Shown in pieces: positions 8,361-17,500 of a stretch of DNA of 64,000 nucleotides (position 1 is the stretch's first letter; the number at the start of each line of letters is the position of its first letter). Origin of the DNA: Saccostrea echinata (Eukaryota). The DNA lies in the NCBI RefSeq assembly GCF_033153115.1, contig NW_026889781.1, positions 5,828,001 through 5,892,000 of the forward strand, in the 5' to 3' direction. A program made the position numbers and the translations under genes. The notes beneath the pieces are model-generated. The model was not told where the DNA came from, made no database searches, and saw nothing but the letters and a program-made list of their open reading frames with translations.

Positions 8361-8581
8361 TTAAATAGGTTTCTTGCAGACATAATAAAAGGTATGCGTA
8401 CATGGGTAAGCAAACCACTTCCAACTTTCATCTTTCCTTGCTGCTGCACAGTTATAATGTTTTCCTTCATGTGGCTGTCCCTTTGCCCAGTTGTCGTAAA
8501 TCACTCTGGATCCATCAGAATCATAGACATACACACCTTCTTGCTGGTTGTCTGTCACAGCAATCCATATACCAACGTCTC
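8361..8581 (-). CDS. C-type lectin domain, terminal exon
   Basis: GDVGIWIAVTDNQQEGVYVYDSDGSRVIYDNWAKGQPHEGKHYNCAAARKDESWKWFAYPCTHTFYYVCKKPI*: WIGL-like motif, NW, Cys pattern; AATAAA on - strand at 8168-8173. Confidence 0.93.
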
Positions 8582-11500
8582 CTTTAAGCAGATTTATATT
8601 TGTCATTATTATTTTTCACTTTCATTCCCCTTAAATGAAATAAAATTCCCGTTTTAAATCCTCACTGATTTTGAAAAGGGAATTCTATTTATAAGAACAA
8701 AATAGATCACTCTTACAACTAAGTTATTAGCTGTGATTGAACAGTTCCTTGTCCCAGCATTGTAATAAGGGTCGCATAGTAAATATAATCATAAAATCCT
8801 GGGTTATATGAGTTTAGTCCGGTTTAAAGCAAGGAATTTATAACTCTATCTATTAATCTTTTAAAGCAAGATCAATTGTAACAATTGCACAAAAATGATA
8901 ACATAAAGTCATGACGGTATGCACATCATTTGCCTAATGAAAGATATATGAAAATATTTACATTTCGAAATATTTTTTTTCTTAAGATTCTTTGCAAATT
9001 AGAAAAAAAGATTATGTTCTCATGAACTACTGTGGGATGAGTAAGACTATTTCCATTGTGATTTGATAAAAATAACAAAATAGTGTAATCTTATTTTTTC
9101 AAAATTGATCGTTGAATGGCAAAAAATATGTAGCAAGTCATCAGAAAAATAATGTCATTATAAGAGATAAATTTAGTTTGTGAGAATTCATGAGATATGC
9201 AGGCGTGAAGCGTCGTAGTTCATGTCCTCATAAATTCTCAAATATAAGATTCATCTTCTAACTAATTGGTATCGAATTATTGTGCAATTAACATTTTTGT
9301 ATTTATATAGATTTCCAAGTTTGAAACTTAAGATTTATTGATTGTATATTGTTTAACTCATATAGAGGCGTCACCACATATATGGCGGCTTCTAATTAAG
9401 GCCTGTAATCGGCACCCAGAGCCATTTCAAAAGCAGTTAGTGTTCTTTATCATGCCAACGGTTACCGTTACACTGGACCTCGCATATTAAGGTTTCATTT
9501 CAAAGACCCTTTCACTTCTAATGTGGGGCGTTTGGAAAAGGAACAGTCACTACCTATGTTTACGTCTTATGTTTGACGCGGCGCAACGAACGACAATCGA
9601 CCTCCCGATCATGAAGCAAACAGCCTGCTACTAGGCTACCGCGTGACCGTTCAGAAAGTTTAAAAGCAGAAAGGCAGAAAGAATCAATAGGCATCTTTCC
9701 CCTCTGATCAACATTTGAGGTTTCCAATTTGTGGCTAAGGAATACCCCATCAAATCCACAAAATCCATGAAAATAGAATCCTAACAAATTAGTATTAAAG
9801 TTGAACTTGGGTATCTCGAACACCGATATCACAATTATCATAAGATATTTCAAAGTGATGTGGAAGTCCCAACCACATATTCTTTAATATTTTACACTTG
9901 AAATATCTGATCATCAAATATCACGAAGTTTATTCTTGGTCACATGGAGTTCGAAATAACAAAGTTTGACTGATAATTACAGTAAAGAACTGGATGATTT
10001 GTTTTACATAGTGTTTTGTAATATATCTTTTTACTTTATTTTATACATGTACCAACATGCATGTATATTGACAGAGTTTTAGCTAATCAGGAGTAAACCT
10101 GCTGAAATTATCTTCACCAAAAAGGATCCTCGCCATTCCTACTGAAAATATAGGCGAAATGGAACCCTACTAATGAATGTTATACCATGAATATTTAGGC
10201 GTCCATAAATTTAAAAAGGTAGGTCCATAGAAATTTTGGAATTGATTTGCTTGAAAATCATGAGAACACATCGAGAAAATGTAAATGAGGTAAAGCAACA
10301 AATGGGTAGTATTTTTTAAGAGATGTGTCATTCTTACAAGTGTTATTTTGGTAATTATATGGTGAATAGTTATGGCTACTTAAAAAAACCTAGCCTTGCA
10401 AGCAGAGGCCAACACTTATGAACATCACGAGCTCATATCAACGTCTTTGTAAGGCAAGGTAAAAATTGAATACGGTGATATTGTTTGGTTTTGTAAAAAA
10501 AAATAATTTTAACTGAAACTTACCTTCTTCTCTTAACTGTAAACCAACCACTTTCTCTATTCTTGTGTTTTGATGTTCAGTAAGACTTGCTCTCTTGTCT
10601 TTGCATGCTTTCTGTAAAATCATTGATGATACACACCATTGGATAAGACGTTTTAAACCCTCATTCAAACTTTTAATATCTTTTCCAAAGCCAAACATTT
10701 TACCTGGATAAAAATATAATCAGGGTTGTTTCTCTATAGAATACATTGCTTACCAAAGCATCTTCAAATGTTACTCTTTTGGGAGAAATGAAGTAGCAAG
10801 AATATTCTAAGTGAATCCATCCCTTCTTGCAAGCTATTCAAAAGAGGAAAATCCAAGTCTAGCGAAAAATTAATATCGACATTATAGAGTAGAGAATGAG
10901 AGAAAGAATAATATTGAATTTTGACATTTTAATTACTTGAAGAAATGGCATTCCCTGTGTAACCATGTCCATCATTATCACGCTGTCCGTAAATGATAAC
11001 GCCAAAGGGTGTTCCATCTGTTGTTCTAACTTTCATCACACCGCTTGGAATACTTAAAGTCCAAACGCTATACAAAGATTTATCTACTGAAATCATGGAA
11101 AAATGACAGGTGTTGTTCTCATTTGCGTTCGTTCCATTTATTGTAAGATACTCCAGAGAATTGGCTTTTATGATAAAAGTGGCAAAACTAAACTTGAAAT
11201 TTCCTGGTACGATAAGATTGTACTCGTTGATATATTGATGTATTCCAGGGATTGTTATCATAAAAGGATCACCATATAAATCATGCTGGGCCGAAGCATA
11301 GGCAAAACTATTTATTAGCAAAGGCTCAATCGACTCTATAGTAGCTGTTTCATTTTCCCGGATAATAAAATCAATTTTCTGATTTTTTGAAACAATTGCT
11401 TGTGTTTTGCTTCCTTCAATAGAATATTGAACTACTGTTTCGATGGGTGAAATTATGCGCACCTGAGATTTGTGTCTATAAATATTCGATGGAACAATAA

Positions 11501-14500: not shown

Positions 14501-17500
14501 GTTAACTATAGTTTGCAATAGTTAACTATAGTTAACTTAAGTAAATCAAAGTGTCAAAGTTATCACTATAGAAAATCTAAGTTTTCAAAGTGATCACTAT
14601 AGTGTCAAAGTGATCACTATAGTAAATCTAAGTTTCCAAAGTGATCACTATAGTGTCATAGTTATCACTAAAGTAAATCAAAGTTTTCACCATAGTAAAT
14701 CAAAGTTTTCATAGTGATCACTACAGTAAATCAAAGTTTTCATAGTGATCACTTTAGTAAATCAAAGTGTCAAAGTTATCACTATAGTAAATAAAAGTGT
14801 CAAAGTTATCACTGTAGTAAATCAAAGTTTTCATGGTGTCAAAGTTATCACTATAGTTAACTATAGTAAACTATAGTTAACTTTAGTATTTCTTTGTTAG
14901 GGGAATTGCAAAATCAACGATATCTTTTAATGATACAGGTATCATCGACGTTTGGAAAAAAAATATCCAAATTTCCTGCATTTGAAGATTTCAATATTCC
15001 GTTTTGGAATTGATTGCCCATATCAAATTACAAGAAATATTCTATATCAGAAAATCAAAAGGTTAAAAGGATTAAAAGGAATAAACTGAATGAACTGTTA
15101 TACATTTATTGACTGAGTTCGAGGGCAACATGCGTTTTGTCGGACCCATGAACCAAACTGTTTGCCTGAGGCCGTTAGGCAATAGTCAATAAATGTTTTG
15201 TTATACCTTTTACTTTTTATTTTGACATAACATAATGAAAATTTTGTTTAACCGCACTGCGGTTTAAACTTGGTCATTTCCGTGAAGTTCTGTCGAACTC
15301 CAACGACTGCAAATAAGATACAGCTGACGCCACCTATACTGTGACGTAGGCGGTCCAACATCTCATCGACAGGTCCAATATCTCGCTCTGGGATCAAGCA
15401 TCGATTTTTTTTATGACTGCTCAATAAAACATTGGAAATGTTAGACTTTTTAAGTATAGAATTATATAGGAATCAATTTTTAAAGGGATAACAATTTAAA
15501 TTGTTTACCTTTTTCTTTTTTAGAATGAAGATAAAACAGTACAGTCAAAATGGTCAATCCAAAAACAAGAGCAATGACGAAAGGAATTAATATTTTTTTC
15601 AGAGTTGTGCCCGGATTATTGGATTTCTTTTTATCCCTGTCCAATTCAAAATTGGGTGTTTCTATTTGCTCTGCCCCACACTTGAAAAAAGTTAAATAAG
15701 CAAAAATTGTAATAAGCGCATAATTCGGAAAAGAGCATTGACTGTTTTAGAATACTGTAGAAAATTGATTAAAAACTAAGGTAAATAACTAACGTGAAAA
15801 AAGAAAAAGAAAAAAATATTACGTTAGAATAAACGTGCATCTCACGTTGCCTTTGAAACTGGTCCTGAAAAGGAATAATTTCCATGAACCATGAATGGCA
15901 AACCTTATGAATCGTTAAATATCGTTAAATATCAAACTCAGTAAAATCTTACAAAATCTTACAATAAGTATATACATATGTAGTTATGCAATTCCATCCC
16001 CAAAACACGAAAACTGCAGAGAAAAACAAAAGTACGTGCAGAAGATCAATTTTTCAATAAATATACAAAGTGCATGTTTTTTCAAGAAACATGAGCATAA
16101 AGGATTATGAAAATCTTATGGGTGTCTCTTATTCGCTGTTACTTTATCCATTTAACCCCCCACACCCCCAAAAAAGCCCACCTAGTATAAGCAACAATTA
16201 GATTTTAATTAAGTAATTATATTGTGGCGAATGCTCGTAACAATATATTTATAAAAATAAACCCGGCAGAACCCAGGTATAGGTTATCTGGCTATTGGAA
16301 TGGCATCCTTTTGAGCCTGGCGCCATAGCCGCTTGGCACCCCTCCCCCCACTTCCCCCCCTCTGTACACTTAAATGTGGTGGGTACAGACCTCTCGTTGT
16401 CCTCGCTAACAGTACTAGTGAGTGCCACACAAGATACAGTACCAACCGGACCCAACCTGACAGAAAGCAATCCAAGTGGGCGAGCTTAATAAACCTTATT
16501 GGCGGAGCTTATTTCTAACTGAAAGTACCCTTTTGAATCAACAAATAATTTCAGTATTCATAAAGGCAGTTGAAATCGATGGTGCACTTCTTTTTCCAGT
16601 AGCAAATTATATATAATATACATGTACATGTATGCATATACATTTAACACCGCATATTCACACTTCTTATTTGATGTATTGTTTTAATACAACAATAATT
16701 TATTTTTTAATATAAAAATAATTTTGTTTTTTTAATACGCAAAGACAGTCCCACCATAGCAACAAGTTTTGCAATTATCTTAAGAGTTGGAAGCATAAAA
16801 TTTATCTAGTATAAAAGGTCATTGAATAGATGATATTGTTGATTTTTTTTTCTTTAACGTTTGTCCATAAATGAGTTGGATGACGAGGACCCAATACGAT
16901 TACCTGTAACTGCAGTCCATTGATAATCCAAATTGTAAAATAATGCCTTGTTAAAAAAATAAAACACAATATACACATATTTACCGGGTCTATATAAATG
17001 TTTTCGCTACTGGAATGAATTGATTCACACACAAAGGGTTCCTGAGATGCCACCTGTTGGATTAGAAGATAACATAACTTATTCAAAAATTGCTGTGAAA
17101 TCACTTATTTTCATGGGGGTAAATTTTCGATGTTTTCGAGGAATGAAGAGAACCACGATTTATTCATGTCCATCACCAAAATGTGAAATTTCGTAAATAA
17201 AATAACCGAGCATTTCCTCAACCTCAAAGTCAAATCCTCTGGAACCAATATTTTTTCTGCCAACCCCGAAAATTCGACCCCACAAAAATATGTGATTTAG
17301 CTGTATTCATTCATCCATTCTGTCTTTATTTCCTCTTTGAAGAGATATCACAACACGTACATTTTACATGTTATATCACGCTATGTTAGGAAAATAAATG
17401 AAAATGACATTAAAAATAAAAAAAAAAGATATTCTCACAAGATCAATAATATCCGGGGAAAATGATTTTTGAATGGAAGCCCTGCTTAAAAAGGTAGAGG

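Follow-up and report, generated by a model that had tools for sequence, protein, structure and literature searches.

Does a single gene of the rock oyster Saccostrea echinata place the N-terminal domain of the IgGFc-binding protein FCGBP (FCGBP_N) and a C-type lectin-like domain (CTLD) on one membrane-anchored chain? The question is raised by a 64,000-nucleotide stretch of contig NW_026889781.1 (hereafter the window), AT-rich animal DNA with four assembly gaps, one of them at 7488-7637, in which an initial annotation had proposed such a fusion. We find that the FCGBP_N exon and a three-exon CTLD are spliced into one gene product. A transmembrane (TM) exon upstream very probably belongs to the same gene, on the basis of frame and paralogues rather than RNA. 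The resulting model (Table 1) has ten exons on the minus strand and nine introns, all GT-AG, with one frame kept throughout. Read from its Met, it predicts 704 amino acids comprising a tail of ~76 residues, one hydrophobic helix, two Gln-rich neck repeats, FCGBP_N (~155-575) and a six-Cys CTLD. The closest proteins come from the rock oysters S. cucullata and S. echinata, at 50-73% identity.

The joint between FCGBP_N and the CTLD

An open reading frame at 12230-10929 (433 amino acids stop to stop, 428 from its first Met, an ATG that sits in the polypyrimidine tract of the intron) had been thought to continue in frame into a CTLD exon. This was borne out: the exon ends at 10937, a GT starts at 10936, an AG precedes 10833, and the phase-1 joint reads ..ISS-T-CKKGW. 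The RNA evidence consists of contigs guessed to be RNA, from four of six listed runs, which carry coded names without a tissue label and represent at most three samples and two studies; we disregarded high depth and most of the joints listed, since these coincide with interspersed intronic repeats. In record 10 of run X2, letters 1-268 lie on 11204-10937 with no differences and letters 438-873 on 8580-8145 with eight. The 169 letters between them equal 80 + 88 + 1, the lengths of both small CTLD exons and the single base 8581; these exons are shown by length and not by aligned letters. Record 23 of run X4 likewise ends at 10937, with 52 letters left over, and both listed contigs that reach this position end exactly there. 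On the far side, X1 record 2 and X4 record 22 break off at 8580, where one more base would reach the acceptor, and have 289 and 92 letters, respectively, beyond this position.

The same junction is common to three Saccostrea RefSeq proteins, namely P0002 (XP_062616364.1), P0003 (XP_062579362.1) and the fragment P0019. P0002 and P0003, both automatic models from S. cucullata, share the architecture and junctions of the window gene, with 68-73% identity over FCGBP_N. Each carries a TM helix, PF17517 and PF00059, and both align gap-free to the window where the two domains join and across the last acceptor. Identity to the window is 305/420 (P0002) and 286/420 (P0003) over FCGBP_N, and 102/129 and 87/129, respectively, over the CTLD. 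The acceptor of the last exon, at 8581, is A-rich and weak-looking, yet it is the most upstream open acceptor and agrees with the paralogues and the RNA; a better-looking AG before 8629 was rejected, as it results in in-frame stops.

Membrane anchor, neck and tail

Residues 4-76 of P0002 match the TM exon by tblastn (E 9.6e-07), and its neck gives a weak match to the neck exons of the window (50%, E 0.17). TM and neck are collinear with both paralogues, each of which has one neck unit to the window's two. The neck copies of the window are 89% identical, against 58-67% in their flanks; in a monomer model of P0002 the neck (69-94) has a predicted local distance difference test (pLDDT) score under 50. 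Of the one-gene protein first proposed, the domain joint is upheld by RNA and the TM by two full-length paralogues. The helix forms a single hydrophobic peak with six Lys or Arg before it and three after, the N-side net charge is more positive than that of the other side in 10 of 10 sequences tested, and no signal-peptide exon was seen. The protein is predicted to be type II, with a single TM, its N-terminus inside and the CTLD at its C-terminus.

The gene had been taken to start at 15680, which proved to be an internal acceptor; it begins farther upstream, because no in-frame Met occurs between 15680 and a stop 23 codons upstream. Two duplicated exons there, ending in ENLYVEM and ENIYIDP, likely form the inner tail. 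Splice sites, frame and the ENxY motif are kept in both, and P0003 has ENPYDVM just before its TM-exon region. The ATG exon, placed on splice signals alone, is the least certain part of the model. The first residues of P0002 (MYHFFK) align with the acceptor polypyrimidine tract of the window, so the tail exons upstream are probably missing from this RefSeq model.

Three Saccostrea members without a CTLD (P0004, P0016 and P0020) terminate in a Cys that lies only a few residues from the domain, and also have a neck Cys; the window protein and P0003 have no neck Cys. The terminal and neck Cys could form a closing disulfide or be a remnant of the first CTLD exon.

The FCGBP_N domain

The match to PF17517 (IgGFc_binding) scores 131 bits against a cut-off of 25.6 and covers profile positions 1-297 of 297 (E-value in Table 1). 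An AlphaFold2 model of the domain (pLDDT 94.8; predicted template modelling score 0.93) is nearly all beta, with four predicted beta-sandwich modules. When the four segments were compared by hhalign, module 2 was linked to module 3 at 97% and module 1 to module 3 at 89%, module 4 being unlinked to the others (under 20%). The domain seems to consist of homologous beta-sandwich modules in tandem, the first of which (~105 residues) is missed by the Pfam model.

A Foldseek search with the whole domain gave a best TM-score of ~0.17 and no solved chain matching the whole predicted fold, and none of the 60 PDB sequence matches listed covered FCGBP_N. Compared as parts of the whole-domain model, module 2 best matched TM1070 (1nc7; Z 8.7, root-mean-square deviation 3.7, 105 aligned) and also 2ii7 (Z 5.8), at 9-10% identity, and module 1 matched the pilin Ig-like domains of 5xcb (Z 8.1), scores of 8.7 and 8.1 that lie near the tool's background of 7-8 and a shared fold that shows no function. 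ESM Atlas features gave no named match for module 2. TM1070 is placed in the ASRAH superfamily of eight-stranded sandwiches with a conserved Trp and Asn, which is predicted to bind sugars (PMC2739507).

FCGBP_N is described as mostly N-terminal and secreted, with varied architectures in invertebrates (PMC4948705). Bacterial FCGBP_N proteins have been tied to gliding and surface adhesion (PMC4948705). The window domain includes an N-terminal extension that bacterial members have too. Oysters have no IgG. Even for FCGBP itself, IgG binding has been contradicted, and in 2025 the N-terminal domain was still described as having an unclear role (PMC11796319).

The C-type lectin-like domain

The CTLD is of the long form, with six Cys (C577, C588, C605, C676, C692 and C700), and its last exon alone matches PF00059 (Table 1). 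In an alignment to MBP-C and tetranectin, the EPN of MBP-C is replaced in the window CTLD by QPH, the Glu preceding the third core Cys by Tyr, and WND by WFA. The WND Asp is also gone from the paralogues, whose motifs are QPL/WVA, QPH/WYA and QPD/WYT. These replacements make canonical Ca2+-dependent sugar binding unlikely, and this part of the annotated 'recognition receptor' is weakened accordingly. A review table does list some bivalve C-type lectins with odd motifs that are still Ca-dependent (PMC12842671). PDB matches of the CTLD include langerin, CD23 and DC-SIGN, and in the full-length P0002 model the CTLD is mostly under pLDDT 50. A word-limited search with the CTLD region of P0003 found only P0003 itself among 23 candidates.

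Distribution and origin of the fusion

FCGBP_N occurs in 142 of 162 proteins retrieved. By phmmer, a CTLD is also present in three of the 142, all from Saccostrea. An internal TM precedes FCGBP_N in eight (six from Saccostrea, one from Magallana gigas and one from Mytilus edulis, the last with four EGF repeats between), and six of these eight have no CTLD. FCGBP_N forms the end of the protein in 90 of the 142, many of which are fragments. Pfam searches found no more than two families in each of P0002 and P0003. Among 52 relatives they added a single Lectin_C protein, P0135, which also has HYR and Big_1 domains. A word-limited profile search (7999 candidates scored, 32 matches) returned no new protein with both PF17517 and PF00059. 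The exhaustive search covered the best 150 of 4514 matches, among which the chordate FCGBP_N and Lectin_C cluster described below was not recognised, and a wider range of the fusion is possible.

A quick IQ-TREE tree was made of 48 domains, 47 selected from the matches plus the window, with Shimodaira-Hasegawa-like approximate likelihood-ratio support (SH-aLRT) only and the careful search not finished. In it, the window, P0002 and P0003 form a group at 100, within a clade of 15 rows, also at 100, whose other rows have no CTLD. Because the CTLD-bearing trio nests inside a CTLD-less oyster clade, the tree suggests that the CTLD was gained once, in Saccostrea, on an older TM-FCGBP_N gene; loss or mis-annotation could account for the pattern instead, many of the other clade rows being partial models. 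The TM forms of Magallana and Mytilus lie on separate branches, which suggests that the phase 1-1 FCGBP_N exon was recruited repeatedly to TM forms. In Magallana, a TM-FCGBP_N unit adjoins TM-fibrinogen-domain units with Tyr tails on both sides (P0164, P0170), so arranged that FCGBP_N would replace a known recognition domain on the same type II chassis.

Two features of the database models were noted in passing. P0164 (Magallana angulata XP_052695902.1), P0166 and P0170 correspond to tandem type II genes with Tyr-rich tails and with fibrinogen, FCGBP_N and fibrinogen ends, either combined in a single RefSeq entry or given as isoforms; P0164 looks like three genes fused. P0017 (Ambystoma mexicanum XP_069460991.1) is a 7017-residue model with 17 tandem FCGBP_N domains, and other matches have 5-11 copies.

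Comparison with known proteins

The window protein has the full PF17517 domain in common with FCGBP and other FCGBP_N proteins (PMC4948705, PMC11796319). Vertebrate FCGBP continues into VWD-C8-TIL repeats, whereas the window protein has no VWD, and the CTLD and stop follow FCGBP_N directly. FCGBP is secreted with this domain at its N-terminus, whereas in the window FCGBP_N is predicted to lie behind a TM (~77-97) and a neck.

The pairing of FCGBP_N with a CTLD, flagged as unusual in the initial annotation, turned out to be catalogued already for teleosts and amphioxus; the bivalve type II form was not found described in the literature search outlined below. Fig. S5 of PMC4948705 carries 15 Lectin_C labels, 12 on vertebrate pages (five read, all teleosts) and three for Branchiostoma, and none in the mollusc rows. 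An ESM Atlas cluster of 116 proteins, mostly Chordata, has Lectin_C in 98% and IgGFc_binding in 73% (score 0.87). The teleost and amphioxus proteins have the same two Pfam domains per chain, a likeness known from text labels and not from domain order or membrane anchoring. The oyster fusion is probably independent of theirs, because it falls inside the CTLD-less oyster clade; no fish sequence was identified in the 48-domain tree.

On the predicted model, the window protein resembles DC-SIGN, langerin, CD23 and Dectin-1 in its N-inside single TM, neck and C-terminal long-form six-Cys CTLD. It differs from these vertebrate type II receptors in a 420-residue beta-sandwich domain between neck and CTLD and in having no canonical Ca2+ site, so that the likeness is architectural. 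The oyster membrane lectins CgCLec-HTM, CgCLec-TM1 and CgCLEC-TM2 also have a membrane CTLD with non-canonical motifs (QPS/WHD in CgCLec-HTM), and the first two have a tyrosine-based tail, as is predicted for the window protein. Their ectodomain, in contrast, is a single domain without FCGBP_N, the TM of CgCLec-HTM is C-terminal, and the window tail has YxxM and YxxP rather than YxxL. The S. cucullata paralogues are named only 'IgGFc-binding protein-like' or 'uncharacterized', and no characterisation of them was found. In literature listings drawn mostly from open-access papers, we found no description of a membrane-anchored FCGBP_N receptor, and 'IgGFc' does not occur in the available part of a bivalve lectin review (PMC12842671).

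A proposed signalling receptor and its rivals

The reading we tentatively favour, at somewhat less than an even chance, is a cell-surface recognition receptor that signals through its inner-tail tyrosines. FCGBP_N would do most of the binding, given that in the majority of membrane-anchored relatives the chain ends with this domain. The CTLD may be a later add-on that binds without a canonical calcium site or helps clustering, and the putative ligand would most likely be a glycan or surface polymer. Ligand-driven clustering would lead a tyrosine kinase to phosphorylate the ENxY sites, and SH2 proteins would be recruited. YxxM, YxxL and YxxP are SH2 docking sites. The scheme resembles signalling reported for other oyster membrane lectins, CgCLec-HTM and CgCLec-TM1, which act through a hemi-immunoreceptor tyrosine-based activation motif (hemITAM), Syk and ERK (PMC12842671, PMC13027682).

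The tail lends the annotated recognition receptor some support, its mucosal setting being conjectural. Among ten tails (the window, eight TM proteins and P0163), YxxΦ accounts for 9 of 20 tyrosines against 3.2 in shuffles (p 0.0012), or for 8 of 19 against 3.0 (p 0.004) when the near-duplicates P0070 and P0020 are left out, both p-values being optimistic given the relatedness of the sequences and the choice of patterns after inspection. The motif is found in seven of the ten tails, and P0004, P0014 and P0070 have YEEL or YEQL.

Several observations count against this signalling receptor. Three of the ten tails have no YxxΦ, and two of these (P0020 and P0163, which share one domain) have no Tyr at all. 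The hemITAM consensus is a single cytoplasmic YxxL after acidic residues, and the window motifs, YVEM and YIDP, are not YxxL. YxxΦ is also the AP-2 endocytosis signal. The two tail exon copies are identical at 49 of 69 positions, not above their flanks, with 14 non-synonymous codons to one synonymous, and there is no sign of purifying selection between them. Among the RNA pieces listed, none supports the TM-to-FCGBP_N joint or the tail exons; bins 15668-16113 are without RNA cover in all four runs, and neither this nor the missing joint is evidence of absence.

An endocytic uptake or clearance receptor of the ASGPR or DC-SIGN kind, its YxxΦ bound by AP-2 and its ectodomain capturing glycoproteins, particles or microbes, is a less likely reading. 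A type II TM, repeated neck and C-terminal CTLD are the layout of group II CTLD receptors, three of which appear among the PDB matches, and the YxxΦ enrichment suits AP-2 signals as well as SH2 sites. However, YIDP, the second motif of the window tail, does not fit YxxΦ, and the acidic and Asn context (ENLY, ENIY, ENPY, DEDYEQL) may resemble tyrosine-kinase sites. Nor does the CTLD have the Ca2+ site that those receptors need to release cargo in a pH-dependent way.

A structural tether, which would hold mucus, larval adhesive or shell-matrix components on the epithelium with little signalling by the tail, we consider quite improbable. IgGFc-binding-annotated and CTLD proteins are among the pediveliger-specific adhesive candidates of C. 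gigas, and IgGFc-binding proteins occur in C. virginica mucus (PMC6337334); the bacterial link to gliding and adhesion (PMC4948705) and the pilin-like module 1 (5xcb) point the same way. Yet, of the six larval IgGFc proteins cited, five bear zonadhesin-like labels and every one is predicted to be extracellular, which is not the architecture of the window protein (PMC6337334), and a tether leaves the Tyr-motif enrichment and the duplicated motif-bearing exon unexplained.

It is very unlikely that the upstream part is wrong or of minor importance and that the gene mainly yields either an FCGBP_N-CTLD protein that is secreted or untethered, or a form that ends at the 10929 stop without a CTLD: the missing TM joint, a contig unspliced across the acceptor at 12199 (X3 record 15), the database product of the same locus (P0001, a single-exon call of 355 amino acids that reads through to 10929, with neither TM nor CTLD) and an ATTAAA overlapping the 10936 donor speak for it, but the TM and neck exons are collinear with two paralogues, conservation of the neck exons exceeds that of their flanks, no exon for a signal peptide was seen, and neither listed contig reaching 10937 reads past it. 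The ATTAAA hexamer, at 10933-10928 on the minus strand, overlaps both the donor and the read-through stop and is possibly due to chance in AT-rich DNA; intronic polyadenylation there could yield a CTLD-less isoform resembling ancestral members.

Extended beyond this locus, the favoured signalling receptor would belong to a bivalve family of tyrosine-signalling surface receptors with an FCGBP_N sensor, a one-exon domain plugged more than once into a type II chassis, with a lectin-like second head added in Saccostrea. We hold this extension to be possible but doubtful, and think it similarly doubtful that FCGBP_N in such a family is a tandem of sugar-binding-type beta-sandwiches common to gliding bacteria and human gut mucus.

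Features of the locus and of the rest of the window

Table 1. Features of the FCGBP_N-CTLD gene in window coordinates
Feature	Position	Strand	Evidence or remarks
Candidate start exon, probably mostly 5' untranslated region (UTR)	20122..20151	-	Start ATG 20124-20122 directly before GTAAGT donor; AG/GT ends and frame only; in-frame stop just upstream; no RNA piece among those listed; least certain part
Tail exon 1, 69 nucleotides, phase 0-0, ends ENLYVEM (YxxM)	18016..18084	-	Splice ends, frame; ENxY placed as in P0003
Tail exon 2, duplicate of tail exon 1, ends ENIYIDP	16985..17053	-	Inside ~300-nucleotide duplication, 73% identity
TM exon, phase 0-1, predicted type II	15509..15680	-	Single hydrophobic helix ~15593-15531 (residues ~77-97); Kyte-Doolittle 2.82
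Neck exon 1, 75 nucleotides, phase 1-1, Gln-rich	13920..13994	-	67/75 identical to neck exon 2
Neck exon 2, duplicate of neck exon 1	12938..13012	-	Duplication, frame, splice ends
FCGBP_N (IgGFc_binding) exon, whole domain, phase 1-1, 421 codons	10937..12199	-	PF17517 E 6.3e-38; RNA-type pieces in 4/4 runs
CTLD exon 1 (TCKKGW...EDAL), phase 1-0	10754..10833	-	81% to P0002 518-544; length fits RNA contig gap
CTLD exon 2, phase 0-1	10524..10611	-	90% to P0002 545-573
CTLD exon 3 and stop	8361..8581	-	PF00059 E 1.2e-08; RNA-type contigs in X1, X2, X4
3' UTR, reaching at least 7691, assembly gap beyond	7691..8360	-	X2 records 9, 10; X1 records 1, 2

Elsewhere in the window, astacin metalloprotease exons lie on the plus strand at ~54500-62500, with PF01400 at 60606-60926 (E 5e-16) and the HEMHHAMGGIHE zinc motif; a Cys-rich EGF-like stretch is found near 62279, and there are possible upstream exons from ~52500. 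Repeats occupy 14480-14900, 18484-18800, 19170-19420 and 38167-38966 and comprise a degenerate minisatellite whose ends are inverted, interspersed intronic repeats of high copy number and a tandem repeat family of ~170 nucleotides.

Significance

The window gene is predicted to encode a shuffled type II CTLD-type receptor in a wider, apparently undescribed bivalve set of membrane-anchored FCGBP_N proteins. Its importance is tempered by the facts that domain shuffling is routine in bivalve receptors, that the CTLD fusion is seen in one genus only and that the domain pair is catalogued elsewhere. Bivalve annotation partly misses such receptors, as this locus is represented by a product only partial in length. 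The gene would add a receptor type to bivalve immunity, and, with FCGBP_N predicted outside the cell and tyrosine motifs inside, its ligand is testable by reporter assay. If the signalling receptor is true, a sensor role for FCGBP_N would give this domain its first assigned function, that of recognising ligands, and the receptor would carry its own reporter for the ligand search.

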